32,000 nucleotides of DNA, taken from Candidatus Saccharimonadota bacterium. GTDB lineage: Archaea; Nanohalarchaeota; Nanosalinia; Nanosalinales; Nanosalinaceae. How positions within the stretch are numbered: position 1 is the first letter of the stretch; each line of letters opens with the position of its first letter. A model generated the notes under the pieces. It had not been told where the DNA came from. It saw only the letters and a list, made by a program, of their open reading frames with translations, and searched no databases. The translations under genes and the position numbers were made by a program. The DNA lies in NCBI RefSeq assembly GCF_029232205.1, contig NZ_CP107255.1:930001-962000 (forward strand), read 5' to 3'. Positions 3,714-29,778 of this stretch are shown here, piece by piece.

Positions 3714-4184
3714 TCAACCTACAGTTCTGGAGAGAGCTGTCTTAAGAATCTCTGATATACGTGCAACGTCCGCTCTGAGCTCGTCAAGCTCCTGTTCATT
3801 GTCATGCATCCTTCTCTCTAGCTGAGCGAATTCCTCGTCAAGGCCTTCCCATAGTTCGTCAAGTTTCTCATCTGACACTTCTTCGCCGCCAGAGGCCTCT
3901 TTGATTTCGTCAATTTCCTGTTTCAGATCCATTAATTCGCGTTCGAACTCGTTGATTCTTTCGGAAGTGCTTGAAGACTCTAACTTGTCTACTTCTGCTC
4001 TGATAGCTTCAACCTGTTCAGAGAGGTCTTTCTCCTGACCTTCGTTATTGAATACCTCTACTTCCAGTTCTTCCAATCTCTTGTTGAGTTCATTGAGCTT
4101 TCCATCGAGCGTGCTTCTGGAGACAGCGTCCATGTCGGAGAGGTTTCTCCTTACGTTCTCGATGTTTTGCTCGATTTCCTGCAT
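3714..4184 (-). CDS. acidic coiled-coil protein, function unknown
   Basis: The ORF is open to 4223 (169 aa). I prefer the ATG at 4184 (MQEIEQNIE..., 156 aa) because the only A/T box in the region (4207-4216) is centred 27.5 nt from it. The start remains uncertain. Confidence 0.7.
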   Translation of the reverse strand: MQEIEQNIENVRRNLSDMDAVSRSTLDGKLNELNKRLEELEVEVFNNEGQEKDLSEQVEAIRAEVDKLESSSTSERINEFERELMDLKQEIDEIKEASGGEEVSDEKLDELWEGLDEEFAQLERRMHDNEQELDELRADVARISEILKTALSRTVG

Positions 4185-4206
4185 AGAAACTGGTTTGTTG
4201 GCGTTG

Positions 4207-4216
4207 TTAATAAATT
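4207..4216. promoter_or_regulatory. shared bidirectional TATA-like box (gpmI and the 3714-4184 gene)
   Basis: ttaataaatt is centred 27.5 nt from the gpmI ATG at 4239 and 27.5 nt from the minus-strand ATG at 4184. Confidence 0.45.
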
Positions 4217-4238
4217 CAATCAACGCGAATATTCAGGT

Positions 4239-5687
4239 ATGAAACCAGTACTTCTAGTGGTTATGGATGGAGTAGGCCTCAGGAAAGAGACCGAAGGCAA
4301 TGCTTTCAAACAGGCGGACACACCAAATCTTGGAAAACTTATGGCTAGGAAAGGGTTCGCCAAGCTAGAGGCATCCGGCCCGGCTGTAGGACTGCCTGAA
4401 GGTTATACAGGCAACTCTGAGGTAGGCCATCTGCACCTAGGAGCTGGTCGAAGAATCGATCAACGACTCACCAGAATAAACAATGCTATTGAGAACGACG
4501 AACTTCGGGATAAAGAAGCTTTGAAAGAGGCCCTGGAGAGAGCTGAGGAAAATAATACTACTGTGCATTTTGCAGGGATTATCTCTGACGGCGGTATTCA
4601 CGGCCATATCGATCATTTGAAGGCCTTGCTTGAGATCGCTTCGGAGTATGATGTTGATGTCAAAGTTCACTGCTTTACAGATGGAAGGGATGTTTCTCCG
4701 AAGTCTGCTGAGAAGTTTATTGAGATGATTGAATGCTGGACTTCCGAGTTTGGTGGTGAGATTGCTACCGTTATGGGCCGTTACTACTCTATGGATCGTG
4801 ATCATAACTGGGATCGTACCTATAAGGCTTACAGAGCTATGGCTCTGGGAGAGGGCTTCGAGTTCTCTGATCCACGCGAGGCCCTGAAGGAGACCTATGA
4901 TGACGGAGATTACGACTACTTTGTCATTCCTTCGATCGCGGAAAGTTATGAGGGTATGAGCGATGATGACGAGGTTGTTTTCTATAATTTCAGGGCTGAT
5001 AGGGAGAGGCAGATCGAGGAGGAGCTTGTTGCAGATGTCGATCCCGATGACAACGAGGAACCTGTCCACCCTAATTTCACCTCAATGTTCCAGTACGAGC
5101 ATGAGATCGACAACCCTGCTATCTTCGAGAAGAAGATTGTTGAGGGAACTCTTGGGGAGAAGATTGAGGAGGCTGGTCTTTCACAGCTGCGTGTAGCAGA
5201 ATCTCAGAAAAGGCCTCACGTTACTTTCTTCTTCAATGGTCAGAGAGAGCTTGAGTTTGAGCACGAAGAGCGCCACTTTGTCGAGTCCGATAAAATCAAG
5301 GCCTATGATCAGAAGCCAGAGATGCATGCCGACGATATCTGTGATGTGGTGCTTGAGGCCCTGGATAAAGGTGAGAAGGACTTTATTTTGCTGAATTTTG
5401 CTAACTGCGACTTGGTAGGCCATACCGGAGATCTTGATGCAGCTATTACCGCTGTTGAGACTGTAGACAGAAATATTGGCCGTTTAGTTGAGAAAGTTCA
5501 GGATACCGAGTATTCAATGTTGATTACCGCTGATCATGGCAACTGCGAGAACATGGGTACAGAGGACAGCCCTAATACATCTCACAGCTTGAATCCTGTG
5601 CCTTTAATCGGCGTAGATATGGATAAAGAGTTGACTGATGGGGAAATATGGAAGGTTGAGAATATTCTGGAGGATCTGTTGCTCTAG
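4239..5687 (+). CDS. gpmI: 2,3-bisphosphoglycerate-independent phosphoglycerate mutase (GpmI-type iPGM)
   Basis: The product starts MKPVLLVVMDGVGL and carries the catalytic-Ser motif TGNSEVGHLHLGAGR, plus SDGGIHGH, FTDGRD and ITADHGNCE. Length from the ATG at 4239 is about 482 aa. The track ORF start at 4167 is an upstream extension. Confidence 0.93.
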   Translation: MKPVLLVVMDGVGLRKETEGNAFKQADTPNLGKLMARKGFAKLEASGPAVGLPEGYTGNSEVGHLHLGAGRRIDQRLTRINNAIENDELRDKEALKEALERAEENNTTVHFAGIISDGGIHGHIDHLKALLEIASEYDVDVKVHCFTDGRDVSPKSAEKFIEMIECWTSEFGGEIATVMGRYYSMDRDHNWDRTYKAYRAMALGEGFEFSDPREALKETYDDGDYDYFVIPSIAESYEGMSDDDEVVFYNFRADRERQIEEELVADVDPDDNEEPVHPNFTSMFQYEHEIDNPAIFEKKIVEGTLGEKIEEAGLSQLRVAESQKRPHVTFFFNGQRELEFEHEERHFVESDKIKAYDQKPEMHADDICDVVLEALDKGEKDFILLNFANCDLVGHTGDLDAAITAVETVDRNIGRLVEKVQDTEYSMLITADHGNCENMGTEDSPNTSHSLNPVPLIGVDMDKELTDGEIWKVENILEDLLL

Positions 5688-5941
5688 CATGCAGGTGCCG
5701 ATGGCCAGCTGTCAGTACATTCTGAGGCGGTATCAGTCTTGATTGTGGAGGCTCTTCCTGTGTCTCCTGCGCAGTAGGCGTCTTCCCACTTTGTTTTTTG
5801 AAGATCGCAGCGGGCATCGGTTGACTGGTTATCTGTGAAAGAAATAAAGTCAGTGGATTGGCCATTGAGCACGAAAAGAACTGCTAGAGCAGTTACCGTG
5901 ATCACTGCTGCAGCCATTATGAGCTCAAGGACCATGTCCAT
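5684..5941 (-). CDS. small membrane-anchored or secreted protein with an N-terminal hydrophobic helix and 4 Cys (pilin-like accessory?)
   Basis: The 85-aa product starts MDMVLELIMAAAVITVTALAVLFVL, followed by a polar domain with 4 Cys. It lies directly downstream of a prepilin-like gene. No [KR]G cleavage motif is present. Confidence 0.5.
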   Translation of the reverse strand: MDMVLELIMAAAVITVTALAVLFVLNGQSTDFISFTDNQSTDARCDLQKTKWEDAYCAGDTGRASTIKTDTASECTDSWPSAPAC

Positions 5942-5955
5942 TTTTTAATCAACTC

Positions 5956-6318
5956 TTAGCAAGAGTCCATTACTTGCCATCCGTTGGCACCGGAGTATTC
6001 AGGGTTGTCGCTTGTAACACATACTTCTGCGGATTGCCAGTCGCTAATACCGTTTGAAGTTGCATCGGCACCTCTAACTGTATCTGTTATTGGATTACCG
6101 TCGTTAGACAGACAGGTGCTCGGTAGCGAGAAGTCATCTCCCTGAACGCTGCCTGCAAGCTGGTTACTCATTGAGGTAGTACAGGCATTTGTGCTTGTAC
6201 TGGATGCGAAGTTTCCTAGCGTTCCTTGAGTTGTGAATGTGAGGGCCATTGAGACCATCATTAGTACTGCTGCTGCAATTATTAGCCATAGAACCTGTGA
6301 AAGGCCTTTACGTTTCAT
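5956..6318 (-). CDS. prepilin-like protein (class III signal peptide)
   Basis: MKRKG-LSQVLWLIIAAAVLMMVSMAL is followed by a polar S/T/N-rich domain with 4 Cys. A TATA-like tttttatac (minus-strand reading) is centred about 25 nt upstream of the ATG. Confidence 0.75.
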   Translation of the reverse strand: MKRKGLSQVLWLIIAAAVLMMVSMALTFTTQGTLGNFASSTSTNACTTSMSNQLAGSVQGDDFSLPSTCLSNDGNPITDTVRGADATSNGISDWQSAEVCVTSDNPEYSGANGWQVMDSC

Positions 6319-6416
6319 AACTAACTTGTTGGTTAGGCCTGTATAAAAATACTTGGAAATTAGCTTCGCTTTGAAACAGAGATAAATAGAAAGAAAATAG
6401 AGAGTATATTTGCTCT

Positions 6417-6704
6417 CTAAGGCTGTGAGAGATCGATCTGGATGCTGGAAACGTTTAGCTGGTCTCCTTCATCTGTTTCGATTTCATCTGTTCCTATTGA
6501 GATGTCTTCGATTTCTGCGTCTTCAACGAACCTGTCTCTTACAATTTCAGCTACGTCTACTGCTCTGCTGATTGCTTTACCTCTTGCTTTGACGTGTACT
6601 GTTTCGTGGCCTTCGCTAAATTGAGTTACAACTGCTAGAACGTAACTCATTGCAGGCTTGGATCCTACGTATACTGTGTTGTCGTCTTCTTGTTCTTCTG
6701 GCAC
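6417..6704 (-). CDS. albA: DNA/RNA-binding protein Alba
   Basis: The Alba core [19 protein letters not shown]...[24 protein letters not shown] is present. The start is GTG, preceded by AGGTGA (6711-6716). Confidence 0.93.
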
Positions 6705-6737
6705 TAGTAATCACCTGTACTTATTATTGGAAGCTAG

Positions 6738-6749
6738 AAATTTAAATTA
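6738..6749 (-). promoter_or_regulatory. TATA-like box for alba
   Basis: taatttaaattt (minus-strand reading) lies about 40 nt upstream of the GTG start. That spacing leaves a short leader carrying the Shine-Dalgarno. Confidence 0.4.
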
Positions 6750-6756
6750 GATAGGT

Positions 6757-7878
6757 CTAGTCATCGGTGAAATCGTGGTTGTAAGGGTCGACTATGAATT
6801 CCATGTATCTTTTTCCAGAGTTAACAGGTACTTTTGAGAACTTATCCTTTAACACCAGCTTTAGATTTGATTTCTGCACAGTTAGAGTAACTTTAGCCTG
6901 ATCTTCCCAGTCATAGCACGTGCCATTTGTGCTGGCGCAGCACGAGCCAACGTCATTTCTAGTCTTATGTGTTTGTTTAACGGAAAAATTGTTTGAAGTA
7001 GCGCCGTAGTCTAAATTCTGGCTAGGCCCTTTCAAGACTACTTCATCATACACCATATCTTTGTAATTTGTGCCAGAGGAAATCACGTTGTAGACCCCCT
7101 CATTAACTTTTTGGTTAGCGCTTGACAGAGCATTATCTTCCGCAGTTGAGAAATCACTGTGGCCTATAGAGCATTGTTTTGTGCTCTTGCCGACATATTT
7201 ATCGACAGACTGCCAATTATCATAAATCTGATAAAGCGTTCTGTTAGCTTCTTCAGCCATTTTAAGATATCTGTTTCCAGTAGCATCGAATTCAAGATTT
7301 AGGAAAGAGTCATTTGCTTTGTACATTGTCTGTCCATCCGGCAGATCACAGTTAACCTGTATCGGGTTTGCGGCAAAAATATTGCCTTTTAGGGAGTAAG
7401 GATTTTCTTCGAACCAGACTCCAAGACTGTAGTCAGGCCTTTCACATCTTCCTGCCTGGCCGGAAGTTACCATATTGTTTAGATCCTGTTCTACCTCATT
7501 GTTTAGTTTGCAGCTTATTTCTCCTATTATTGGCAGCGTTGAACAGGTGTTTCCTGGTATTCTGTTGTATGGAATATTGTTTGAGCTGGATTTGTAGATT
7601 TCATAGTCCCAGTCCACGTTTGGGCCTCCTCCCTGTTTCGCCATCTCATAGGTATTCTGGTATGTAGTGTAGAGTGCTGCTGTTGGAACGTAGTTGTAGA
7701 AATATAGCTCTCCGTAGGCCTTGGTATCCGCCATTCTGTCTAGATCTTTTACAGATGTGTCCAGGTTGTCTGAGAAGTAGCTGTTTACTGGTAGGGACAT
7801 CATTCCGAATACTAGAGAGAGCACTAGGAGGCCTACTGCTGCGAGTACTGCTGATGGTTCTCCTTTTCTATCGTACAT
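6757..7878 (-). CDS. large prepilin-like protein (373 aa), Cys-rich extracellular domain
   Basis: MYDRKG-EPSAVLAAVGLLVLSLVFG is followed by an N/S/T/Y-rich domain with 8 Cys. A strong Shine-Dalgarno GGAGGTG (7885-7891) sits 6 nt before the ATG. Confidence 0.78.
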   Translation of the reverse strand: MYDRKGEPSAVLAAVGLLVLSLVFGMMSLPVNSYFSDNLDTSVKDLDRMADTKAYGELYFYNYVPTAALYTTYQNTYEMAKQGGGPNVDWDYEIYKSSSNNIPYNRIPGNTCSTLPIIGEISCKLNNEVEQDLNNMVTSGQAGRCERPDYSLGVWFEENPYSLKGNIFAANPIQVNCDLPDGQTMYKANDSFLNLEFDATGNRYLKMAEEANRTLYQIYDNWQSVDKYVGKSTKQCSIGHSDFSTAEDNALSSANQKVNEGVYNVISSGTNYKDMVYDEVVLKGPSQNLDYGATSNNFSVKQTHKTRNDVGSCCASTNGTCYDWEDQAKVTLTVQKSNLKLVLKDKFSKVPVNSGKRYMEFIVDPYNHDFTDD

Positions 7879-8422
7879 TCAGTACACCTCCTGATTCGTA
7901 GTATATTGTGATTCTGCCTTGGCCTCCTTGAACTGCTATTGGGTAGCTTACTCTTGAATATTCTGATACCTGGCCTACACTCAGGACAGCTCCGTTCTGA
8001 TCGTATAGCTGTACCATGTAAGGTTTGTTGCCGTAGCTATTGTTCATTACTGTTCCAATATAGTTAGAGATATCGGTTTCCGTGTCGTTGTAGTCTACTC
8101 TGGTACCGTTCAGCCATATATCTTCGCCAGGACTTGATGAAAGGAATTTAGATATGACTGTGTAGGCCTTTTGATCCTGGTATTTTCCGTACGTGACGCT
8201 GTCGGCTCTCCATAGCTTGTCAACCATTATCCTTGTGGCTGAGGTTCTGATCCGGATTTTTTCGGCGTTGAAGTTGACATTTTTATCGACATTGACGTTC
8301 TGTGTGTTTTCCGCCATTGCATTCAGTGAGAAAATGTAGATTGCTATCATTGTGACTATGATGAAGACCATGGTGAATCCTAGGGCCTCTATTAGGCCTT
8401 TACGAGGTTGGGTATGGGTCAT
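7868..8422 (-). CDS. prepilin-like protein (184 aa)
   Basis: The N-terminus is MTHTQPRKG-LIEALGFTMVFIIVTMIAIYIF. The gene overlaps both neighbours (8400-8422 and 7868-7878). Confidence 0.75.
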   Translation of the reverse strand: MTHTQPRKGLIEALGFTMVFIIVTMIAIYIFSLNAMAENTQNVNVDKNVNFNAEKIRIRTSATRIMVDKLWRADSVTYGKYQDQKAYTVISKFLSSSPGEDIWLNGTRVDYNDTETDISNYIGTVMNNSYGNKPYMVQLYDQNGAVLSVGQVSEYSRVSYPIAVQGGQGRITIYYESGGVLNVR

Positions 8423-9005
8423 AGACGTAGATTCTCACTGGGAGTTTTGAATGGTTTTTGTCGTTTCTTACTAGTAAAGCTGTGGATACTACTGCTCTCT
8501 GTCTTACTGCTGGATGCATTGAGATACATTTACTCCTCGTGGCCTGATTATTGGTACCATTAACTGTAACAGACTTGAAATCTTCATTTGCATCTCCTAG
8601 GCCATTCCCTTGAGGATCTACTGCCTCATTTTCAAGGATTCTTATACCGAAGGCAAAGTTTTGGCCATCGAGGCCTTCAACTTCTTCTATGTAGCAGTGG
8701 TCTGTTCGTCTAAATACATTGTATCCTATTCCGTTCGGCCCAGGGTTGTAGTTAGAGAAGTACTCAACAGGTATTACTCCTCTTCTTTGAGTGTACTCGT
8801 AGCCATAAAGATCCTCTGTATCTGCATCTAGAGACAGTATATTTTCTAGTACTATGGCCTTTCTGTAGTCTTCTGTCTGTGTTGCTTCGATGTTGTGATT
8901 TATCTGTGTTAGGCCTCCAAGGAAGAATGAAAATATTACCATTATACCCAGAAAAATCATTACTGCATATGCTATATAGGAGATTGAGTCAAGTTCAATA
9001 GCCAT
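8400..9005 (-). CDS. pilin-like or membrane-anchored protein with an N-terminal hydrophobic helix (201 aa)
   Basis: The N-terminus is MAIELDSISYIAYAVMIFLGIMVIFSFFLGG and the protein has 2 Cys. Its start abuts the upstream stop (9005/9006). No basic-G leader is present. Confidence 0.65.
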   Translation of the reverse strand: MAIELDSISYIAYAVMIFLGIMVIFSFFLGGLTQINHNIEATQTEDYRKAIVLENILSLDADTEDLYGYEYTQRRGVIPVEYFSNYNPGPNGIGYNVFRRTDHCYIEEVEGLDGQNFAFGIRILENEAVDPQGNGLGDANEDFKSVTVNGTNNQATRSKCISMHPAVRQRAVVSTALLVRNDKNHSKLPVRIYVYDPYPTS

Positions 9006-9431
9006 CTAGCTAGGGCACCCAGATTCATTTAGTATGAGGGTTGATTGTCCTGAGCGGTATTCTTTCTGAATACAGAGAGATCCGTTAACCGGTTCGTAAA
9101 CAGATGGTGCTATTATATTGTCATAACTGATCATGTATGGTTCTATCTGACTGCTTCCAACAGATCCTGAGAAGTTGAGACTTAGATTATTGTCATTTTG
9201 ATCATATTTTATCTGGTATCTTTCCATGCTAAGAGCTATGTGGCCTTCCGGTACCGTCTCCATGACCATCATGGCATTTATTACTCTCTCTGCCTGAAGA
9301 TCTACGGCCTGGTGGCTTGTGTAGTCAACACTCTGTCCAGCCGAACCATTAGTCAAGACGATTAGAAGGCCCATCACCATTAGGCCTACCAGGCTAAGAA
9401 TCATTGCTCCTGACACTCCTTTTCTTTTCAT
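9006..9431 (-). CDS. prepilin-like protein (141 aa)
   Basis: The N-terminus is MKRKG-VSGAMILSLVGLMVMGLLIVL. The protein has 2 Cys near the C-terminus and several N-x-S/T sequons. Confidence 0.75.
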   Translation of the reverse strand: MKRKGVSGAMILSLVGLMVMGLLIVLTNGSAGQSVDYTSHQAVDLQAERVINAMMVMETVPEGHIALSMERYQIKYDQNDNNLSLNFSGSVGSSQIEPYMISYDNIIAPSVYEPVNGSLCIQKEYRSGQSTLILNESGCPS

Positions 9432-9433
9432 GA

Positions 9434-9910
9434 CTAATTCTCTTGCACTTCAACAAGTACTGCAGGTTTTCCGTTAACCTCTGTATCGTAGGAAACCGTT
9501 ACATTGTACGGTTCGCTCTTCTCAAATACATGGTGTAGCCGAGGCCCTGAATGGAACTGAATGTTGCAGCTGGCAATATAATCGCTTTCAGCCAGTAATG
9601 TGCTATCCTGAACTTTTGTCGCACGGAACTTTTGATCATTGTCTGGATCATCTTCCTCCGAAACAAGAGTGACATTCATCTTGGAGGAGAGCTGGAAGGT
9701 ATTACTTCTCTGATCTGCCGAGCTTCCCTGAACACATACATTCCTTGTAGGTAGGAAGACCTGTTCCTCAAGTTTCTGTGCATCATTGCTAGTAGCGCTC
9801 ATACCCAGAACATTTTGCAGAGATCCCACACCCACACTAATACTTGAAACCGTCGCCATCAATCCCAAGAGTGTAAATACCGTTGCAGATGCTGCAAGGC
9901 CTTTATGCAT
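9434..9910 (-). CDS. prepilin-like protein (158 aa from the ATG at 9910)
   Basis: The N-terminus is MHKG-LAASATVFTLLGLMATV. GAGGTGA (9919-9925) sits 8 nt upstream of this ATG. The track ORF start at 9982 is an unsupported extension. The protein has 2 Cys. Confidence 0.72.
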   Translation of the reverse strand: MHKGLAASATVFTLLGLMATVSSISVGVGSLQNVLGMSATSNDAQKLEEQVFLPTRNVCVQGSSADQRSNTFQLSSKMNVTLVSEEDDPDNDQKFRATKVQDSTLLAESDYIASCNIQFHSGPRLHHVFEKSEPYNVTVSYDTEVNGKPAVLVEVQEN

Positions 9911-10139
9911 TTGCTGGTTCACCTCTGTCAGATTGATATGCTGTGTTCTTACAGAATTCCTCAGGGTTGTCCTGATGGGCATTTCTTCCTATACATCCGA
10001 GAAGATCAGATCTATTGTTTCCGGCCTCAGCTCCTTTGTTGCCAGAGTCTTTCACTATAGTGTTTGCTGCTCCAAAGAGTGCCGAAATCAGTATTACTGA
10101 CAGTACTAAAGCTCCAACTACTTTAATTGCTGCGTGCAT
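9903..10139 (-). CDS. small pilin-like or membrane-anchored protein (78 aa)
   Basis: MHAAIKVVGALVLSVILISALFG is followed by a polar tail with 2 Cys. The gene overlaps both neighbours (ATGCATAA-type junction at 9903-9910). Confidence 0.6.
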   Translation of the reverse strand: MHAAIKVVGALVLSVILISALFGAANTIVKDSGNKGAEAGNNRSDLLGCIGRNAHQDNPEEFCKNTAYQSDRGEPANA

Positions 10140-10323
10140 ATCGGATACCTGAGATTATTGTTATTGATTTTATGAGAGAGGTGTTTGTTGCATTACCTCC
10201 GAAATCAACGAATCTGCCCGCGTAATTATTTGTAAGAACTCCGAGAACTGCGATTAGAATGATTACAAGCATGAATGCCATTACTATTGATAGACTGATT
10301 TCGAGGCCTTTCCGCGTTGACAC
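10123..10323 (-). CDS. small prepilin-like protein (66 aa, GTG start)
   Basis: The N-terminus is (GTG)STRKG-LEISLSIVMAFMLVIILIAVLG. An A/T box is centred about 27 nt upstream. The GTG start lowers confidence. Confidence 0.6.
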   Translation of the reverse strand: MSTRKGLEISLSIVMAFMLVIILIAVLGVLTNNYAGRFVDFGGNATNTSLIKSITIISGIRYARSN

Positions 10324-10355
10324 ATGGTTATTTTGTGAGAGCCTGTTAAAATAAT

Positions 10356-10493
10356 CTAAGGGGTTGGATAGGTTACGTTTCCTGCGAAGTTGCCTGCCAT
10401 TGAGTCAAACCACCCTGAGAAGCCCATGAATATGACTGAAACTATCATGACTACAAGTACGAGCATTGCTACTGTCTTTACTGATACTTCCAT
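10356..10493 (-). CDS. 45-aa single-helix membrane or pilin-like peptide, absent from the supplied ORF track
   Basis: My hand translation is MEVSVKTVAMLVLVVMIVSVIFMGFSGWFDSMAGNFAGNVTYPTP. GGTGA (10498-10502) sits 4 nt upstream of the ATG. The ORF fills the gap between two pilin-like genes. Confidence 0.55.
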   Translation of the reverse strand: MEVSVKTVAMLVLVVMIVSVIFMGFSGWFDSMAGNFAGNVTYPTP

Positions 10494-10502
10494 GTTGTCA
10501 CC

Positions 10503-12116
10503 CTAGTTGATTCTGATATCATTTATTCTTATCACCGCGTCCTCTGTTGTTCCTGAGGCCCATGATTCCCATGCTTCTAGTTCTACCCGATTAAAGTCTC
10601 CGTTCATGTTCTTTGAGTGTTCCCAGACGACGTTTCCTGAGCTATCTGTCATCTCCCATTCTACATTAGTTCCTGTCTTTCTCAGAACGATCGTATACTC
10701 CTCGCCAGTCTGATAGTTTGCAACCACGCCATAACTATCTCCCGCGGTATCTCCTGGATGCTGGTATGGAGGATCGTTGTTTTCATTGCAAGTTCTGCAG
10801 TACATCCATAGTTCATCAGTTCCTGTCGCATCAGTGTTGATATTGGTTACTCTGTCATTAGATGAATCTATCACATCTATTCTGAAGTGGCCTCTCGTTT
10901 CGAAGTATACATCAAATTCAATTCTCTTCTGGCCGGAAGGAAGATTCCAGACCATCTGATCGTCTCCATAGGAGTCATCTGGCCTAAAGACGTTGGTTCC
11001 AGATTCTTCATACAAAACTCTATCGTTGTTAAAGTTGTAGCTGTCTGGGGGGCTGGTAAGCTGGTTTATTATGCGTTGATTTGGAGTCGGATTATTACTC
11101 AGAGTACAGCTGCTGTTCATATCAGTTATCTGTATCATGCCATACAAGTTATCCTCGTTGTCTCCAGTACTGAGCACGCCGAGCATATCTCCAGAGGCCT
11201 CACCTGCGTTATGTGGAGATCCTTTACGGGTTTCAATGTACCCTTCATCTCCAGGACAGATTAAAACTTCTACATAGTGATCCTGGCCATTATTGGTTAC
11301 ACTATTTTCATCTTTTGGGAATCCATTTTCTTCACCAGGTTTGGTTAGCCATGGACCATCATTGTACTCATCACAGTAGAGTCCATCATTCTCTCCACCA
11401 TCTTGATATCTCTGCTCGATAGTCCTTCCGCCTCCTTCAGTATTAACTCGTGAACTTCCTCCTCCATTCTTGAAGAACAGGGTGAAGAAGCTGTAAGGCT
11501 TTTTGTTTATTATTTTCTGTCCATTCTGAGTAACAGCTTGAGAAGCATAACCATCTCCTACAACCGGTTTCCAGTCAGCACATCCAGGACCGAAAAGCCA
11601 GTCACTGTAGCCTGCTTTTCCATTCGGGCCATCTCCTGTAGAGACTCCTGCAAGGGTGGCTGCTGAGTTCGATCCGAATGCTAGGCCAGTCTTTAATCTA
11701 AATGGAGAGATAGAGGAGTTAATTTTGAATTTTATCCGGCCATACTTCCCCTCCATATCATTTCCGCTGCTGCTGTAGAGCTCTTGAGCGCCTTTTGCTA
11801 GGGTACTACCTGCTCCAGCACATGGAACCGCGCCGTCATCTGTGAGCGAGGTTGATCTTAAATCAGAAAAAGTCTCTCCTTCAATGTCATCGCAGCTCCA
11901 GGCGCGCCAATAATTGTACTTTAGAAGCTCTCCAAATGTCTCTTTATCATCTACTACAACCGTAGTGTTCACGTTTGTGAACCTCTCAGCTTCTCTGAAT
12001 CCTTCTCCTACTTTAGCTCCTAGAGGCCCAAACATTGCTCCGGATATTACTGCTGCCACCAGAACTGTAAGCATTATTTCTCCGAGGCCTGCTTCTAGTG
12101 CTCCTTTTCTTAGCAT
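10503..12116 (-). CDS. large prepilin-like protein (537 aa) with a C-terminal beta-rich domain; candidate tip adhesin
   Basis: MLRKG-ALEAGLGEIMLTVLVAAVISG is followed by a G/N/D/S-rich region with 8 Cys. The last ~150 aa show alternating beta-strand-like patterns (RIEFDVYFETRGHFRIDVID ... EYTIVLRKTGTNVEWEMTD ... AVIRINDIRIN). Confidence 0.8.
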   Translation of the reverse strand: MLRKGALEAGLGEIMLTVLVAAVISGAMFGPLGAKVGEGFREAERFTNVNTTVVVDDKETFGELLKYNYWRAWSCDDIEGETFSDLRSTSLTDDGAVPCAGAGSTLAKGAQELYSSSGNDMEGKYGRIKFKINSSISPFRLKTGLAFGSNSAATLAGVSTGDGPNGKAGYSDWLFGPGCADWKPVVGDGYASQAVTQNGQKIINKKPYSFFTLFFKNGGGSSRVNTEGGGRTIEQRYQDGGENDGLYCDEYNDGPWLTKPGEENGFPKDENSVTNNGQDHYVEVLICPGDEGYIETRKGSPHNAGEASGDMLGVLSTGDNEDNLYGMIQITDMNSSCTLSNNPTPNQRIINQLTSPPDSYNFNNDRVLYEESGTNVFRPDDSYGDDQMVWNLPSGQKRIEFDVYFETRGHFRIDVIDSSNDRVTNINTDATGTDELWMYCRTCNENNDPPYQHPGDTAGDSYGVVANYQTGEEYTIVLRKTGTNVEWEMTDSSGNVVWEHSKNMNGDFNRVELEAWESWASGTTEDAVIRINDIRIN

Positions 12117-12337
12117 ATGCTACCATCTGTTGCGTCCGCTACTACACTTGAAATTGCCTTCATGTATGGGCTCTGGCAGCTGCTGGTGGTTTCTGCGCCG
12201 AAAAGTGCTGGCAGAAGATATGGCATGACTAAGGCCCCGAAGGCTATTGAGAGGAATAGAGCCATTATTATTCTCATGCTCCAGCCCATTCCTTTGCTTT
12301 TAGCGTAAAAGTTGAGGGTTTTGAGAAAAGTCTTCAT
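12110..12337 (-). CDS. small prepilin-like protein (75 aa)
   Basis: A longer leader, MKTFLKTLNFYAKSKG, is followed by MGWSMRIIMALFLSIAFGALV. The protein has 2 Cys. The gene overlaps the next gene by 7 nt. Confidence 0.65.
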   Translation of the reverse strand: MKTFLKTLNFYAKSKGMGWSMRIIMALFLSIAFGALVMPYLLPALFGAETTSSCQSPYMKAISSVVADATDGSIC

Positions 12338-12360
12338 GTTAGAGAGTTGTGTTCTGTTGT

Positions 12361-12498
12361 TTATAGTAATTTTTCAATAATTCCTGTGACCACGTTGTCG
12401 ATTCCCTGGCTTACTGCTCCGATAATTGCGGCGGCTGCAATCACGGCAACACCCATCAGTACTAGCTCCTGTGTTGAAAACTCTCCTTTTCTCTTCAT
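12361..12498 (-). CDS. 45-aa prepilin (class III signal peptide, helix-only), absent from the supplied ORF track
   Basis: Codon-by-codon hand translation gives MKRKG-EFSTQELVLMGVAVIAAAAIIGAVSQGIDNVVTGIIEKLL. The ATG directly abuts the stop of the platform gene (12498/12499). A GGTGG Shine-Dalgarno-like element sits 8 nt upstream. Confidence 0.7.
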   Translation of the reverse strand: MKRKGEFSTQELVLMGVAVIAAAAIIGAVSQGIDNVVTGIIEKLL

Positions 12499-14670
12499 TT
12501 AGCCTGCCACCTGTGTAACGGATCCTACCATGCCTCCAAATAGCATTCCTACGATTATAAGAGTCATCGTATAGAAGAACATTCCCGAGATCATTATTTT
12601 TCCTATGAAGAGGTTCTTGTATGTAGGATCCTCTCCCTTCTTGATCTTCGTGAAGAAACTTCCCAGTATGTAAAGAAGCTGGATTAGATATACTCCTACT
12701 ACAAACTGCAGTAGCTCTGGAGGAATAGCTGAATCGAAACCAGATATTACTCCCCCAAGGCCTGCTGAGGCTCCCGGCTGGTTTCCGATCTCGGATTCTG
12801 TTACCGATTTTGAAAGAGTTGTCATGGCCGTAATGATTGTCTGAGACATGCCTACTGCAACCCCTGAAACTACTGGTGCCAGCAAGTATGCCAGCATCTG
12901 TATAGTTGTTGTAGTATCTTCCATCAGGTCGTTAAGCTGCTCCTGAGTCTTGTGAATATTCTTCAAGTATTTTGAAATTGTAAGCATTGCTGTAGAGGCC
13001 ATATTGGTTCCTTTTCTGGAGGATTCGATGATGGCCTTCATTACTGTTCTTATCATCTGACTTGGGAACTGTCTCAGTGCGCCGTAACGGTCATCCATTA
13101 TGGATTGTTCAAAGGTCATGCCCATGTCTTTGACGTTTTCTGAGGCCTTTCCAAACAGATTAGATATCTCAAGTTCTGAAGTAGCCTCTGCAGCTTCCTG
13201 TAGTGCAATTTCTACTGGTGTTCCCCCTGAAATCTTGTTTCCTAGTTCGAATAGTGCGTTTGGGAACTGGTCTTCTATTTTGGAGAGGTTTTTTTCAGCT
13301 TCTCTTCGTTCAAGATTTCCAAGCGTTTTTACGGCCCCTATTCCTACTCCGAGGCCGAAAATTATGGACACGCTTCTCATAAGCATCGGTAGTGGATCTA
13401 GTGCTCCTCCAGACTGTAGGTATATTGAGGGAACCTGACTCACGCTGAAGTCTCCTGCAGGGTAGAGAAGTAGTAGGCCTTCTCCAGCTCCTAGTGTAGA
13501 TAGGTATCCTACTACGCCATATGTGGCGAAGAAGAAGAATATTATTATTCCTACAGGCCATACTGGCGCTCTTATTGTCTTTCCTAGTACATCAAAGGTG
13601 TATTTTCCTCTTTCTGGCAGTGTTGAGTCATCTACCGGTTTGGTTGCTACTGTTGGCGGCCTTGAGCTGAGCACTCTTTTCATGAACCAGTAGAGGAATG
13701 TTGGCAGGAGCACGTTGAAGAGTAGGAAAAGGTGCATAGGTGTGATGGCGTCTCCCATGAATACGGAGATAAGCGGGAGCATGATCATACCAAGTACCGG
13801 AAGCATGGCTCCCATCGCGTTCAGGATCATGACAGGAGTCTCCAAGTTCTGCGCATAGTGTTTCATTTTCTCCTGTGTTCCGTCCAGAATGTTGTCGATC
13901 GAGTCCTGAAGCATAGATTCTCTTCTCTGTGGATCAGGCTGATTCATCGCAGAACGAAGAAGATTCAGCGATTCGAGGAAGTCATCGTTGTAGTCCTTCC
14001 ATCTTCTTGTGTAATTTTCAAGCGCACCATCAATCTTGTTGTACTTCCCTATCTCCAGATTCCATAGTACTGATTTCAGATCGTCCGAGATCGGGCCTTC
14101 CAGGTTAAGTGCTGCGAAACGAACTGCTCCCTCCAGATTAGGAGAGCTTCTCATGTATACTACCATGTACAGAATTGCAAGAATCATTTCTCCACTGCTT
14201 TCTATTAACTTGGACTGCGCTGCGTACTTGGGCTTGTAGTATGTATAGGCTCCCGCTATCATCGGAGCAGTCATCATTATCATCATGATCGATATAGGGA
14301 TGAGGCCTCCCAGAACCAGAGTGTTAATCATGAAAAGCATCATCCAGGCCATGAAAGAAAGCAGGAAGACCCCTACTGTTGCAGACATAACCATTCCTGG
14401 CGTTATATCCCATCCAAGAAGATTGATAGGTGGCGTCAGTTTTTTGTGAGTCTGCTCTCCGGCCTTCATGTTAAATACGTTTGCCATTTCATAGCAGAGC
14501 TTCTCATAACTATTTCTCTCCTGTGATCTCTCTTCATCTTCCTTGTAGTCCTTGTAAGAACGCGAATATCCTTGGCCTCCATCTTGATTGTTGTATGGAG
14601 GCATACTTACGTCTCTATCTAGATCATCTAGTATTTCATTTATCTTGTCCTGTTTTTCGTTCTTATCCAA
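12499..14670 (-). CDS. FlaJ/TadC/PilC-family polytopic platform protein of a type IV filament system
   Basis: The 723-aa product has an acidic cytoplasmic N-terminus, then alternating clusters of TM helices and soluble T2SS-F-like helical domains (ILYMVVYMRSSPNLEGAVRFAA..., IALQEAAEATSELEISNLF...). It lies immediately downstream of the secretion ATPase. Confidence 0.88.
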   Translation of the reverse strand: MDKNEKQDKINEILDDLDRDVSMPPYNNQDGGQGYSRSYKDYKEDEERSQERNSYEKLCYEMANVFNMKAGEQTHKKLTPPINLLGWDITPGMVMSATVGVFLLSFMAWMMLFMINTLVLGGLIPISIMMIMMTAPMIAGAYTYYKPKYAAQSKLIESSGEMILAILYMVVYMRSSPNLEGAVRFAALNLEGPISDDLKSVLWNLEIGKYNKIDGALENYTRRWKDYNDDFLESLNLLRSAMNQPDPQRRESMLQDSIDNILDGTQEKMKHYAQNLETPVMILNAMGAMLPVLGMIMLPLISVFMGDAITPMHLFLLFNVLLPTFLYWFMKRVLSSRPPTVATKPVDDSTLPERGKYTFDVLGKTIRAPVWPVGIIIFFFFATYGVVGYLSTLGAGEGLLLLYPAGDFSVSQVPSIYLQSGGALDPLPMLMRSVSIIFGLGVGIGAVKTLGNLERREAEKNLSKIEDQFPNALFELGNKISGGTPVEIALQEAAEATSELEISNLFGKASENVKDMGMTFEQSIMDDRYGALRQFPSQMIRTVMKAIIESSRKGTNMASTAMLTISKYLKNIHKTQEQLNDLMEDTTTTIQMLAYLLAPVVSGVAVGMSQTIITAMTTLSKSVTESEIGNQPGASAGLGGVISGFDSAIPPELLQFVVGVYLIQLLYILGSFFTKIKKGEDPTYKNLFIGKIMISGMFFYTMTLIIVGMLFGGMVGSVTQVAG

Positions 14671-14673
14671 GCA

Positions 14674-16935
14674 TTACACCTGCTGTTGCAGCCATTCATC
14701 CCATCTTGCAAATATCCTATCATTATCTAGATCCCCGTATTCTTCTCTAACGCGCTGTGAAAGTATGTGATAGCGCTGATTGGCTTTTACAACAAAGTCG
14801 GCCTCCAGAAGTTGTTTATCGCTTTCCTGATTGGCCTCTACAAGTCTCTCCTTTATCTGCTGTCTTAGCTTGATATTGTCCCAGACCGCTTCCCAGTCGT
14901 TCTTCCATTCCTTGATATTTTCAGCGATCCTGTTCAGAATCAGTGACTCGCCGTTCATCAGTTCATCGGTGGGAACTAGCTCATCTTTATTGCTGTCATA
15001 TCTCATCAGATCGACAAACGCGTTTTCATCTTGAGGATCCTCCTGCCAGTCCTTCCTCACCTCGGTAATGCCAGTAACCCTACGGTATGTGTCCATACCG
15101 TCGGGACTTCTGATCTTATTCACACTGACAATAATGTCTGTAGCCTTGAAAGAAGTTCTTGGAACATTAAGATCGTTTACAACACGGTCAAAAACAGAGT
15201 ATGCATCTTCGCCGTGAATCGTACCTCCTACGAAGTTTGCAACAGCTCCAACACGCATGGCCTCGTAAAGAGCCTTTGCCTCATCAGAACGGACCTCTCC
15301 AACAACAAGAGCAGAGTCTCCTAGCCGTAGTGAGGTTCTAATTGCCTCATCCGCTGCCATCTCATTCTCAACCTGCGTAATAGCAGATCTGGACTTCATA
15401 CGCTCGACATTGTAACCTAGATCCTTCATCTGAGGAATAGGCAGCTCAAGCGTATCCTCAACAGTCACAATCCTGTGACTCTTCATAATCTCAAGCATAG
15501 AGGCCCCAAGAATCGAGGACTTACCAGCGCCACGAGTACCTGCAAACAGAACCGAGCGATTCCCGTCAACAAGGAAGGATATCAGGGCCGCGCCAAGAGA
15601 GTTTATCATACCATTATTCATGAAAAGAGGTAGTGTCCAAGCCTTTGAACGGTGTCTTCTGAACGCGAACGCAAGGCCTTCTGGCGAAAGATTTTCCTGT
15701 ATAACTGCTACACGGGCTCGGCCTCCAGGAACCTCAGCCTCAGTATCCAGTACCGGATTGGCCTCGTCAAGAGGTCTTCCTGATCTGATTCTGAATCTTG
15801 TGGCCCATGACTCTGCCTCGTCCTTTGTAGGTATTAAGTTTGTCTCACATTCCCCGTACTCCTGATGGGAGATATACATCGGAGAATCTCCTATCGGAGA
15901 GTTAATGTAGACGTCCTGGATTTTTGGATCAGCTAATAGAAGCTCCAAGACACCAAGGCCTGAAGTATACCGGTTAAGAATTGAACCTAGCTCTTCTAGC
16001 TCTTCTAGAGATAAATCAACACCCATCTGATTTGCTATATCTCTGAGCATGTCCTTCCCGATATTCTGGAATACCTCATTCATTCTCTCAGGCCTGGCAA
16101 ATTCTCCTTCTTCAGGTTGGTGAGAGGCCATGTATCTTCTTGCTGCATCCAGCAATGTGTATTTCTGCTCTGACAGATTGAATTCCGGAGGATTGACATG
16201 GTATACAGGCCTTGTCTGATCGGGCACCCTATATATAGAAACTTCTATGTTGTCTCTGACCTTGTACCGGTCTACTTCCTCTCCTCTTTCTGGAGGAAGA
16301 CTCATGTACTTTGTAAGCATGAAGTTAGGCCTTACAAGAGGGTGGAAGAACTCTCTGTAGATTTCTCGGTCTCCTACATGGTGGCCTGTAAGATACTGTT
16401 GTGCATCCTGTATTAGCTGGCATTCCTCTATTCTGTCAATTACAGGATTGAGAACATCTTGTATAAAGTATTTCAGACATCTCTGCTGCTCAGGATATGC
16501 ATTTTGCCTGTCCTGATTTAGATGTCTTTTCTTACGAGTAAGCTGGACATAGGCCCCGATAGGATCTTTTCTCATCTGGTCGAAAACACTTTCCTGTACG
16601 TCAGGAAGATGCTGACTGTATACTGTATCGCATTTATCTGTCTTTACGTTCTGAGAAAGGTGGCCCTGCGAGGATATATCCTGTATTACCTGTGAGATTT
16701 CTCTAAGGTATTTTACCTGTTGTTCATCGTATTCGTAGTCTCTCGACTCGGATAGAACTACCGATGATGCATCAGGAACTTCCTGCAAGATGTTTATTAC
16801 TCGGGACATGACCTGAGGATAGTCCTCGAGGCTTGCACCGTAGATTGAGCCCAGCGTGTTTACCTCTACAGTGCCTGATTCTTCATCATAGTCGTATTCG
16901 AAAACATCTTTGTCTGTTACAGTCATACCCAGCAT
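14674..16935 (-). CDS. type II/IV secretion-family ATPase (FlaI/GspE/VirB11-like), 753 aa
   Basis: Motifs are Walker A FAGTRGAGKSS, Walker B-like ALVVGEVR, the Asp-box region VTVEDTLEL, and the His-box GGTIHGE. Long N- and C-terminal extensions flank the core. Confidence 0.92.
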   Translation of the reverse strand: MLGMTVTDKDVFEYDYDEESGTVEVNTLGSIYGASLEDYPQVMSRVINILQEVPDASSVVLSESRDYEYDEQQVKYLREISQVIQDISSQGHLSQNVKTDKCDTVYSQHLPDVQESVFDQMRKDPIGAYVQLTRKKRHLNQDRQNAYPEQQRCLKYFIQDVLNPVIDRIEECQLIQDAQQYLTGHHVGDREIYREFFHPLVRPNFMLTKYMSLPPERGEEVDRYKVRDNIEVSIYRVPDQTRPVYHVNPPEFNLSEQKYTLLDAARRYMASHQPEEGEFARPERMNEVFQNIGKDMLRDIANQMGVDLSLEELEELGSILNRYTSGLGVLELLLADPKIQDVYINSPIGDSPMYISHQEYGECETNLIPTKDEAESWATRFRIRSGRPLDEANPVLDTEAEVPGGRARVAVIQENLSPEGLAFAFRRHRSKAWTLPLFMNNGMINSLGAALISFLVDGNRSVLFAGTRGAGKSSILGASMLEIMKSHRIVTVEDTLELPIPQMKDLGYNVERMKSRSAITQVENEMAADEAIRTSLRLGDSALVVGEVRSDEAKALYEAMRVGAVANFVGGTIHGEDAYSVFDRVVNDLNVPRTSFKATDIIVSVNKIRSPDGMDTYRRVTGITEVRKDWQEDPQDENAFVDLMRYDSNKDELVPTDELMNGESLILNRIAENIKEWKNDWEAVWDNIKLRQQIKERLVEANQESDKQLLEADFVVKANQRYHILSQRVREEYGDLDNDRIFARWDEWLQQQV

Positions 16936-16966: not shown

Positions 16967-17398
16967 ATGCCTCAGCAAGACATTGTAAATCAGTTAGTAG
17001 ATAGGGTCAACGACTTTAACAGAAGGATCCGTGATCTGGAGGAGAAAGTTAGGAACATCAACGCCCGCGTCAACACTCTTGACGACAGCCTGCTTAAGAA
17101 GACCAAGTCTTTGAGCAGCGATGTTCAGGATATCAACGATGATATGAGCGAGATTAGAGATAGGATAGCCAATCTTGAGGTAGATATTAAGGAGATTAAT
17201 AGAGAGAAACGTAAATTTGTAACTTCTCAGGAAATAGAGGAGATTGAGAACTACATGGATTTAATGAATCCAATCAACTCCTCTTTCATGACTGAGAAGG
17301 AGGTTAAATCTCTTCTCAAGAAGCAGGAGACTGATGGAGGCCTGAGTAGGAAAGAGGTAGAGCAAATCGTAGAGAAAAAGCTCCGCGACCAGGATTAA
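16967..17398 (+). CDS. coiled-coil protein (143 aa), function unknown
   Basis: A clean ORF transcribed divergently from the ATPase. It shows heptad-like repeats (RIRDLEEKVRNINARVNTLDD ... RIANLEVDIKEINRE). Confidence 0.75.
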   Translation: MPQQDIVNQLVDRVNDFNRRIRDLEEKVRNINARVNTLDDSLLKKTKSLSSDVQDINDDMSEIRDRIANLEVDIKEINREKRKFVTSQEIEEIENYMDLMNPINSSFMTEKEVKSLLKKQETDGGLSRKEVEQIVEKKLRDQD

Positions 17399-17442
17399 TT
17401 GTTTATAAACCAGAAGGCGTATTATATTTGTAGGCGAGCCGT

Positions 17443-18372
17443 ATGGAATTCAAATTATTCGATAGACTAAAAGATGAAGATGGACAGTCCGACTCCAACT
17501 CCGGTAACGGAGGTATGGGAGGAGGCTTTGGCGGCTCAAATTCCGGTAATTCTCAGGCAAGTTCTTTTGGAGGTAATGGAGTAGAGAGAAGAGTTTCAGA
17601 CATGTTTAATCAGGGCTACTCTGAGAAAGAGATCAAGGACGAACTTCAGGGCCAGTTTTCTCAGACAGAAATTGAGAGAGCAATCAATAATGCAGTGAAA
17701 AGCTCTGCAACTGGAAATAATAGTAGTAGCGGGTCCAGTGGTGGGCCTCAGCCGATGACACCGTATAAAAGCGATAGCGGTGAGGAAGCGATAAGCCCTA
17801 TGGACGAAGGTTTCGATGGTGGAGATGATAATCAGATGAATCAGGATAACGGTCAACAGCAAGGTATGCAGCAGAATCAAGGTTTTAACCAGCAAAATAA
17901 TACTCAACAACAGCAGCAGGTACAGCAGCCTCAACAGCAACAGCAGGGAGGCCAGCAAGTTAATCCTTCTCAGGGTTCTGTTAATCCCGAGATTGAGGAG
18001 TTGATTGAAACAATTGTTTCAGAAAACTTCCAGATGGTTGAACAGAGATTTGACGACATATTTGAGGAAATCGATATTCTTGCAGACAAGGTAGATGAAC
18101 TGGAAGACCGAGTTGAGGAACTGGAGATCAGAGATGATGAGGATCAGGAACAGTTCCTCCAGAAAGTAGATGAGGTAGAGGACCACATCGATTCCTATGA
18201 GTCAAGGATTGGAGGTCTGGAGAAGGCCTTCCAGCAGGTCTTGCCATCGCTTGTTGACAATGTCCGCGATCTCACAAGTCTTGTCCAGGAGATTAAACAG
18301 GAGAGAGGTATTGAGACAGATACCAACGTCTCTCAACAAGACATGGATAAAATGGACATTGACAACTGGTAA
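17443..18372 (+). CDS. G/S/N-rich plus Q-rich low-complexity protein with an acidic C-terminal coiled coil, function unknown
   Basis: The 309-aa product has a G/S/N-rich N-terminus and a short helical motif FNQGYSEKEIKDELQGQFSQTEIERAINNA. A Q/N tract covers aa 129-177, followed by a coiled coil (KVDELEDRVEELE ...). Confidence 0.8.
   Translation: MEFKLFDRLKDEDGQSDSNSGNGGMGGGFGGSNSGNSQASSFGGNGVERRVSDMFNQGYSEKEIKDELQGQFSQTEIERAINNAVKSSATGNNSSSGSSGGPQPMTPYKSDSGEEAISPMDEGFDGGDDNQMNQDNGQQQGMQQNQGFNQQNNTQQQQQVQQPQQQQQGGQQVNPSQGSVNPEIEELIETIVSENFQMVEQRFDDIFEEIDILADKVDELEDRVEELEIRDDEDQEQFLQKVDEVEDHIDSYESRIGGLEKAFQQVLPSLVDNVRDLTSLVQEIKQERGIETDTNVSQQDMDKMDIDNW
17827..17973 (+). repeat. Q/N-rich low-complexity coding tract
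   Basis: It encodes DNQMNQDNGQQQGMQQNQGFNQQNNTQQQQQVQQPQQQQQGGQQ using mixed CAA/CAG codons. Confidence 0.85.
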
Positions 18373-24679: not shown

Positions 24680-24685
24680 GACCCC

Positions 24686-24695
24686 TTTTTTCTTT
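24686..24695 (+). terminator. oligo-T tract after the 23942-24679 gene
   Basis: cccc-tttttt-c-ttt begins 7 nt after the TAA stop. Confidence 0.35.
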
Positions 24696-24741
24696 CAACC
24701 AAAACCCTTTTAACTTTCTTTGTTATTAAACAGTAACAACA

Positions 24742-29690: not shown

Positions 29691-29778
29691 ACCTGCTAAG
29701 AAAGCGATTTACTTCTGAATAATAACAACAATATTTAATGATTTGGCACCAATAAGACAACAGGGGGAGAAAGGGCCA

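Follow-up and report, generated by a model that had tools for sequence, protein, structure and literature searches.

We asked what kind of surface machine is encoded by a string of minus-strand genes (5684-16935) in a 32,000-nucleotide (nt) stretch of contig NZ_CP107255.1 (assembly GCF_029232205.1, positions 930,001 to 962,000 of the forward strand; the whole stretch is hereafter the window). DPANN archaea need physical contact with a host, which they have to recognise and hold, and very few surface machines are, like this locus, shared by several DPANN phyla. It consists of genes for an ATPase and a membrane platform protein, 11 packed open reading frames (ORFs), the alba gene and two further ORFs (handles and coordinates in Table 1). 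In the genome paper (Reva 2023) the operon was noted as a large one, coding for as many as 22 hypothetical proteins and 'resembling euryarchaeal archaella operons'.

The ORFs of the window were analysed by profile searches against Pfam and NCBIfam and by prediction of transmembrane (TM) segments, and the locus was compared with 38 related loci found by scanning one genome per species. The locus belongs with the type IV filament systems and is not an archaellum. We consider it likely that its genes form the Ca. Nanohalovita haloferacivicina version of a DPANN type IV filament machine, which is conserved in cluster-2 DPANN, is adhesive and serves host contact. The locus as such is not novel, since a conserved DPANN locus of this type has been published (Hamm 2024, PMC11291902) and the operon was noted in the genome paper. 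New in the present analysis are the set of pilin-like genes, a 537-amino-acid (aa) protein with a concanavalin-A-like head (p537), the candidate major subunit p120 and the leaderless pilin paralogues.

The ATPase and the platform protein

The two core genes belong to the families named in the first-pass annotation, which had been made from the letters of the window alone. The ATPase matches PF00437 at 6.6e-15 and has intact Walker A (GTRGAGKS, at 466), Walker B (VVGEVR, at 543) and His box (TIHG, at 572) motifs. The platform protein, with nine predicted TM segments, matches PF00482 (T2SSF) in two stretches at 25.2 bits, which is exactly the gathering score; no NCBIfam model matches it, including that of ArlJ. 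Where the DNA of a related locus continues beyond the ATPase gene, a platform gene comes next in nearly every case. The ATPase itself is 100% identical to protein P0001 of Ca. Nanohalovita haloferacivicina, and its identity to the ATPases of related loci is 75-94% within Nanohaloarchaeota and 51-55% in Aenigmatarchaeota.

To place the ATPase, we compared its scores with the cut-offs of the models for named systems. It reached 147.9 bits with the FlaI equivalog NF058587 (cut-off 550), 118.4 bits with the TadA model TIGR03819 (cut-off 373) and 36 bits with the ComGA model NF041000 (cut-off 300). The profile of the ATPase family, searched against structures in the PDB, scored highest with afGspE (2OAP, 117 bits), a member of clade 2 of Makarova 2016, followed by CpaF (89 bits) and FlaI (4II7, 76 bits). 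Exhaustive search of 1.84 billion representatives gave 283 clusters of ATPase relatives at E<=1e-30, many of them with inteins. Those with names come from Woesearchaeota, Anstonellales, Aenigmatarchaeota, an unclassified CG10 archaeon, Methanolobus zinderi (839 aa), Altiarchaeota and Thermoplasmatota. ATPase and platform are thus members of an archaeal clade, with their nearest relatives in DPANN, Methanosarcinales, Altiarchaeota and Thermoplasmatota. The homologue set of the ATPase has more than 2,700 members, versus 11 for p120 and 16 for p537, and such shallow sets fit fast-evolving surface proteins.

Relatives from outside DPANN align to the ATPase from about residue 22 of the query (the M. 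zinderi protein over its full length, from residue 22), and the N-terminal domain, which is Cys-rich in the ATPases of M. zinderi and Altiarchaeota, has about three Cys in the window ATPase. Matched by description, the ATPase looks like subclade 4F of Makarova 2016 (MA1299-like, arCOG01818). Members of 4F have an extra N-terminal domain, the cysteines of which are not conserved in halobacterial and nanoarchaeal orthologues, and an associated coiled-coil protein; the cognate pilins of the 'nanoarchaeal' members were not identified in that study. The window shares with 4F the extra N-terminal domain (Cys-rich in methanomicrobial members, Cys-poor here), a coiled-coil and an adhesin-like component, and a putative major pilin located apart from the core genes. 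It differs in that the pilin-like genes lie in the operon and are numerous; Nanohaloarchaeota were not part of the Makarova study. The genes described below are offered as candidate cognate pilins for the DPANN members of the 4F-like ATPase clade.

One or two inteins interrupt close ATPase homologues, as in loci L011, L027, L028, L030 and L033, and the intein-bearing homologues P0004, P0008, P0016, P0102, P0148 and P0154 (PF14528, PF14890) are about 1,250 to 1,783 aa long. The insertion point corresponds to about residue 496 of the query, directly past the sequence EDTLELP. The window ATPase is intein-free.

Pilin-like genes beyond the platform

Every coordinate and junction of the overlapping or abutting genes reported in the first-pass annotation was verified. 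From the ATPase gene through p373, successive genes are separated by 3, 0, 23, -7, 9, 32, -17, -8, 2, 0, -23 and -11 nt. The 11 ORFs that follow the platform gene encode proteins of 45, 75, 537, 45, 66, 78, 158, 141, 201, 184 and 373 aa, and the two beyond alba proteins of 120 and 85 aa. The gaps widen around alba (52 nt between p373 and alba, 98 nt between alba and p120, 14 nt between p120 and p85), and TATA-like boxes are found about 26-31 nt ahead of the start codons of the ATPase gene, p75, p66 and p120. Because of the wider gaps and the placement of these boxes, alba and p120-p85 are probably transcription units separate from the main string.

To identify class III signal sequences we used published rules (PMC4371748): G, A or S at -1, a charged residue at -2, and the site ahead of the H-domain. 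Characterised sites of this class are KG/Q (Epd), KA/IS and KG/IS (Ups), and RA/LS (Aap) (PMC4371748; the slash marks the site). Nine of the 13 ORFs (p45a, p75, p537, p66, p158, p141, p184, p373 and p120) have [R/H/S]-K-G directly ahead of a hydrophobic helix, while four (p45b, p78, p201 and p85) start with the bare helix and have no leader. All 13 have exactly one predicted TM segment, which is N-terminal; in the nine with K-G the hydrophobic helix spans about 20-30 residues, and the stretch after the site is uncharged to about residue +29 or beyond. As a control, only 3 of the 177 other ORFs of the window (at least 40 aa) passed even a loosened rule, all short and probably spurious, and none had K-G. 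The K-G/helix pattern is therefore far above chance.

The leaderless ORFs were analysed through their relatives. In other genera, members of the p45b and p78 families have K-G or K-A leaders. Orthologues of p45b carry leaders in five loci (L002, L004, L014, L027 and L034; MDRKG/IDLSIKT, MKG/IEFSIRT), while in the window, L001 and L011 the protein begins at the mature end and a stop codon lies just upstream. Likewise p78 is leaderless in the window, L001, L002 and L011, and the ORFs that occupy its place in L003 and L006, not detected as homologues by tblastn, have leaders and a similar mature N-terminus (..SKG/VNLAIKAV and ..RKA/VTLSIKTV). Met1 of p85 aligns to residue 6 of p120, the +1 position (blastp E = 1.4e-5 in a database of the 13 ORFs only), and all p85 orthologues start with MDK[TL]LE... 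and have no leader. This is the only paralogy that an all-against-all comparison of the 13 ORFs revealed; other likenesses were limited to the N-terminal helix. The sites of the p158 orthologues from L001 and L011 read RRG and SKG. Orthologues of p201 start with MDLYN[LI]... and none has K-G; because the class III site is absent from all of them, p201 is possibly a bitopic accessory or assembly protein and not a pilin.

Judged from these N-termini, the defensible count would be nine canonical pilin-like proteins, two leaderless derivatives (p45b and p78), one leaderless paralogue (p85) and one doubtful member (p201). That the small ORFs are pilin-like is supported, and all 13 have one N-terminal helix, but the first-pass count of 13 pilins is overstated: with K-G in only nine, 13 is an upper bound, and the string encodes roughly nine to eleven pilin-like subunits. 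As a separate observation, p85, p45b and p78 start where the mature N-terminus of their leadered relatives lies, so that no signal peptidase would be needed.

The layout of the locus recurs across Nanohaloarchaeota and in the Aenigmatarchaeota loci L017-L019. The pilin-like genes are collinear among related loci, and their products are 25-67% identical or undetectable; K-G is kept in orthologues despite the low identity of the rest of each protein. Related loci with at least about 4 kb of downstream DNA have 5-10 ORFs with K-G or K-A past the platform gene, versus 0-2 on the antisense strand, and the excess of K-G ORFs holds in L017-L019 too. In many of these loci the first gene after the platform is a K-G/K-A ORF of about 42-63 aa (mostly 44-50). 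More distant loci (L021-L026 and L037; ATPase about 51-52% identical) have a different layout, in which a divergently transcribed 462-aa TadC-like gene is followed by only three K-G genes. Because the operons of L021-L026 and L037 carry only these three, the large pilin-like set is, as read from the loci compared, a lineage-specific expansion. Related loci carry 3 to 10 K-G ORFs, and the locus, the pilin complement of which the first-pass annotation had called unusually large, is not exotic.

Two of the products allow a more specific prediction. The AlphaFold2 (AF2) model of p537 consists of a helix (11-47), a mixed middle part and a beta-sandwich at about 355-537, the latter with a predicted local distance difference test score (pLDDT) of 80-92. 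In Foldseek searches of the PDB, the beta-sandwich matched PL7 alginate lyases (9e-8), CBM66, legume lectins and galectin with a probability of 1.00; none of the 16 members of the p537 family has a Pfam match. On the strength of the model, p537 is a modular pilin-like protein with a probable glycan-binding or glycan-cleaving head. Modular pilins of the PilB/PilC type of Streptococcus sanguinis likewise join a pilin N-terminus to a large globular adhesin domain, and the head of p537 may be comparable to the lectin module of PilC. These lectin pilins are bacterial and have no sequence relationship to p537.

In p120, the first ~33 residues are 90-100% conserved among the 11 homologues, K-G/[LIM]SQ is retained in eight loci, and the start codon is preceded by TTTATA at -29. 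Its AF2 model has helices at 6-27 and 34-56 and a small beta domain. Given the near-invariant N-terminal helix, the probable transcription unit of its own and the four cysteines, p120 is the best candidate for the major subunit.

Assembly, maturation and competing readings

By analogy with established type IV pilus (T4P) biology, we infer the following route to a fibre. A hexameric ATPase would dock on the single fused nine-TM TadC-like platform and drive membrane-anchored subunits from the bilayer into a helical fibre. An A24-type class III signal peptidase, with its gene at another place in the genome, would trim the K-G leaders off the nine precursors, and the hydrophobic helix at the new N-terminus, about 20-30 residues long, would form the core of the fibre. 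In such a fibre p120 would be the major subunit, the 45-78-aa and mid-sized ORFs would supply minor, priming or tip subunits, and p45b, p78 and p85 could enter unprocessed. The head of p537 may bind glycans of the haloarchaeal host envelope or polysaccharide, whereas p201, cc143/cc309 and m166/m189 would probably act as assembly or regulatory accessories. A role in host attachment, raised in the first-pass annotation, is plausible. The pilin-like subunits, the lectin-type head and p120 as possible major subunit offer concrete targets for experiments with the cultivable Nanohalovita-Haloferax system.

Among characterised systems, the locus resembles the Epd pilus of Methanococcus maripaludis and the Tad/Flp pili in its multi-gene operon with several pilins, a very short pilin (EpdE/Flp), a CpaF/TadA-related ATPase and a K-G-type site. 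The Epd cluster has 11 genes and five pilins. However, Epd and Tad have two platform genes (EpdJ/EpdK, TadB/TadC) and a peptidase in or near the locus (EppA, TadV), whereas the window has one fused 723-aa platform and no linked peptidase. In addition, Gln is needed at +1 in Epd, and Flp has G/xxxxEY, while +1 is variable here (L/V/A/E/M). With the archaellum the locus shares the ATPase and platform superfamilies and class III signal peptides on the subunits.

Two T4P-like loci, each with CpaF, TadC and coiled-coil proteins, have been described in cluster-2 DPANN, and several of their products were seen by proteomics (Hamm 2024, PMC11291902). The window has in common with them the CpaF-like ATPase, the TadC-like platform and the adjacent coiled-coil genes, and the shared distribution covers, among others, Nanohaloarchaeota, Aenigmatarchaeota and Woesearchaeota. 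Filament proteins (FlaF, PilA) were annotated only in Locus 1 (Hamm 2024). Because the Locus 1 neighbours Mpg, GroEL and GatE are absent from the window, the latter is probably Locus 2, for which pilins were not reported. Locus tables were not found in the supplements of Hamm 2024, nor were arCOG numbers or locus tags found in Reva 2023 and Hamm 2024. Ca. Nanohalobium constans, the ATPase of which is 78% identical, was observed to bear filaments, and T4P/archaellum genes are upregulated in Ca. Nanohalococcus occultus.

Several points weigh against the adhesive-filament reading. None of the 13 ORFs matches a curated pilin or archaellin family of Pfam (Pilin_N, Class_IIIsignal, Arch_flagellin) or NCBIfam (flagellin/pilin N-terminal domain) at E<=0.1 to 1, and for this reason they are annotated as hypothetical. 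The T2SSF score of the platform is exactly at threshold, confidence in the p120 model is low (pLDDT 64), a Foldseek search of the PDB with it gave no match, and the 4F assignment is a matter of descriptive agreement. An A24 peptidase is encoded neither in the window nor in the ~10 kb around the loci of the 38 relatives. For this locus, cleavage and a fibre are predictions in every organism, and the second T4P-like locus of Nanohaloarchaeota could explain the filaments seen by electron microscopy (Hamm 2024, PMC11291902).

These points have to be set against what other readings of the locus would explain. The machine could instead build only a short pseudopilus, a tip complex on a short stem that does not extend into an adhesive fibre. 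As in Com or type II secretion systems, it would serve as a piston or conduit, either to take up DNA or host material or to secrete across the surface layer (S-layer). Such a role is possible, given the many distinct subunits (9-11 here, 5-10 in relatives), several of them very small, and an ATPase nearer to CpaF/afGspE than to FlaI; moreover, symbionts without most biosynthesis must import from the host, and DNA uptake by pili has been proposed for DPANN. Yet the window contains no genes for a ComEA/ComEC-like channel, a nuclease or a secreted substrate, no GspL/M/C/D domains and no retraction ATPase. The lectin-headed pilin suits adhesion more directly, the strong conservation of the candidate major pilin, and a promoter of its own, speak for a fibre made in bulk, and a close relative bears long filaments. 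We hold a pseudopilus to be unlikely. The earlier suggestion that the machine resembles bacterial type II secretion systems or competence pseudopili more than archaeal pili is not supported or overstated: the clade of the ATPase and platform is archaeal, components for uptake or secretion are lacking in the window, and the Epd pilus too is built with multiple pilins. A different objection concerns the small ORFs themselves, most of which might be signal-anchored surface or membrane proteins, with the pilins encoded elsewhere. Sequence alone does not tell class III signals and signal anchors apart, four ORFs lack the K-G site, no curated pilin family is matched, and major pilins of 4F are often stand-alone genes (Makarova 2016). 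Nevertheless, K-G before the helix is kept across genera despite fast divergence, overlapping junctions couple the genes to the platform gene, the architecture is kept in distant phyla, and the predicted N-terminal helices are long, which makes simple signal anchors very improbable.

The likeness to euryarchaeal archaella operons noted in the genome paper corresponds to a third reading, an archaellum, intact or degenerate, that powers the swimming of detached cells. Several database entries name the ATPase FlaI, proteins of the platform type are automatically annotated as FlaJ, the FlaI model is the best NCBIfam match of the ATPase, and 'long archaella' were reported on N. constans. However, NCBIfam has few other models of archaeal pilus ATPases, the FlaI match (148 of 550 bits) is far below its cut-off, and the family profile prefers afGspE and CpaF to FlaI. 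The window, as the first-pass annotation had also stated, has no ArlH/KaiC, ArlF, ArlG or archaellin among its ORFs in the Pfam and NCBIfam searches, and the platform does not match ArlJ. Two acidic coiled-coil ORFs (17443-18372 and 3714-4223) give weak matches to FlaC_arch; these were rejected as evidence for an archaellum, being under the gathering score and amid matches to many generic coiled-coil families. An archaellum is thus extremely unlikely, and our analysis corrects the archaellum annotation without adding a new kind of machine. The adhesive type IV filament remains the reading that we favour.

The first-pass annotation had drawn attention to the missing prepilin peptidase. The observation stands for the window ORFs, none of which matches A24, but it is not distinguishing, as the PibD gene is, as a rule, unlinked from those of the Ups, Aap and Haloferax PilA pili (PMC4371748). 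We analysed the multi-TM proteins of the loci as candidates. The membrane protein m189 has an Asp in TM1 and a GxGD-like 'AGWGD'; the motif is not conserved even in the closest relative (L001 'AGWGN', L002 'AGATEL'), and neither m189 (at E<=1) nor m166 has a Pfam match, so that m189 was rejected as an A24 peptidase. A peptidase motif scan of the related loci returned three ORFs, and the one at L015:5750-6718 has no A24 match. Multi-TM ORFs of 170-450 aa in the related loci (n=38) comprised 28 of the m166/m189 family, 3 platform fragments and 7 others, namely one glycosyltransferase, five without match and the L015 ORF. A protein of about 290 aa found in L009, L010, L012, L015 and L038 was rejected as well, since it has no invariant Asp. 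The text and supplements of the genome paper do not mention a prepilin peptidase (Reva 2023), and two Nanoarchaeota were reported to be without any A24 peptidase (Makarova 2016). It is conceivable that Nanosalinales-type nanohaloarchaea lack A24 altogether, and that K-G is cut by an unrecognised protease or the lineage drifts to peptidase-independent assembly; the latter shift could be suggested because of the three leaderless paralogues p45b, p78 and p85. We regard this scenario as quite improbable. If true, it would mean, together with the expanded subunit set and the lectin-tipped pilin, an organelle for host contact or uptake that matures by a route new to type IV filaments.

Neighbouring genes and further observations

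Table 1. Features of the locus and its surroundings (window coordinates; a slash marks the predicted class III site)
Feature	Description	Coordinates	Strand	Evidence
ATPase	GspE/CpaF/FlaI superfamily, 753 aa, N-terminal extension of ~200-300 aa	14674-16935	-	PF00437, motifs
platform	TadC/PilC/FlaJ-like, polytopic, 723 aa, TTG start	12499-14670	-	PF00482, 9 TM
p45a	45-aa pilin-like ORF, MKRKG/EFSTQELVLMGVAV..., Flp/EpdE-sized	12361-12498	-	K-G then one TM
p75	pilin-like ORF, ...AKSKG/MGWSMRIIMALF...	12110-12337	-	K-G site, TM; orthologues in L001, L008, L011, L027
p537	modular pilin-like protein, MLRKG/ALEAGLGEIML..., C-terminal concanavalin-A-like jelly-roll	10503-12116	-	AF2 model, Foldseek
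p45b	45-aa leaderless pilin-like ORF, MEVSVKTVAMLVL...	10356-10493	-	leadered orthologues
p66	pilin-like ORF, MSTRKG/LEISLSIVMAF..., GTG start	10123-10323	-	K-G site, TM
p78	leaderless pilin-like ORF, MHAAIKVVGALVL...	9903-10139	-	leadered ORFs at corresponding position
p158	pilin-like ORF, MHKG/LAASATVFTLLG..., start at internal Met (9910) of ORF 9434-9982	9434-9910	-	K-G site
p141	pilin-like ORF, MKRKG/VSGAMILSLVG..., 5 N-glycosylation sequons	9006-9431	-	K-G site
p201	bitopic protein, N-terminal TM, without class III site	8400-9005	-	orthologue N-termini, one TM
p184	pilin-like ORF, MTHTQPRKG/LIEALGFTMVF...	7868-8422	-	K-G site
p373	large pilin-like ORF, MYDRKG/EPSAVLAAVGLL..., 8 Cys	6757-7878	-	K-G site; orthologues in 9 loci
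alba	chromatin/RNA-binding protein	6417-6704	-	PF01918 at 9e-22
p120	candidate major subunit, MKRKG/LSQVLWLIIAAAVLMMVSMALTF..., 4 Cys	5956-6318	-	conserved N-terminus, TTTATA
p85	leaderless p120 paralogue, 4 Cys	5684-5941	-	blastp vs p120
cc143	acidic coiled-coil protein	16967-17398	+	divergent from ATPase, 31-bp spacer
cc309	second coiled-coil protein, Q/G/S-rich N-terminal half	17443-18372	+	coiled-coil matches, synteny
m166	small multi-TM membrane protein, upstream accessory gene	18419-18919	-	conserved as far as Aenigmatarchaeota
m189	m166 paralogue, acidic C-terminal tail	18927-19496	-	synteny

The genes upstream of the ATPase, cc143, cc309, m166 and m189, are conserved with it as far as Aenigmatarchaeota. 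The first of them lies beside the ATPase gene in 25 loci, Aenigmatarchaeota included, and has only sub-threshold coiled-coil/SMC-like matches. The genes cc143 and cc309 correspond to the coiled-coil protein (CCP) genes of Hamm 2024 (PMC11291902). The membrane proteins m166 and m189 are not peptidases and may be unrecognised membrane components of the machine.

The alba gene is embedded among the pilin-like genes, between p373 and p120. It is found at the same place in nine related loci (L001-L004, L006, L008, L014, L020 and L034), and alba, p120 and p85 recur in the same position in many Nanohaloarchaeota. Alba is probably not a functional part of the machine.

In divergent Nanohaloarchaeota, the multi-TM protein of about 290 aa mentioned above is encoded 3-4 kb upstream of the ATPase gene (L009:6051-6917, L010:4934-5812, L012:6474-7298, L015:5750-6715 and L038:5619-6488); it has no Pfam match, and its invariant residues are only L, G and F. 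In the window, a 179-aa ORF (20032-20571) is paralogous to the last ~150 residues of its 746-aa neighbour (20609-22849). The larger protein starts with a Sec-type signal peptide, contains TM segments as well as Q-rich and coiled-coil parts, and is partly conserved upstream in L001, L002, L011 and L027.

Very acidic coiled-coil ORFs without family are unusually dense in the window (1911-3644, 3714-4223, 16967-18372, 23942-25743, 28211-29644 and 29743-30783), and the two with FlaC_arch matches are among them. These ORFs may correspond to the coiled-coil proteins highlighted in Hamm 2024 (PMC11291902). The sole RNA gene detected in the window is that of a tRNA-Arg (GCG), at 92-163 on the minus strand.

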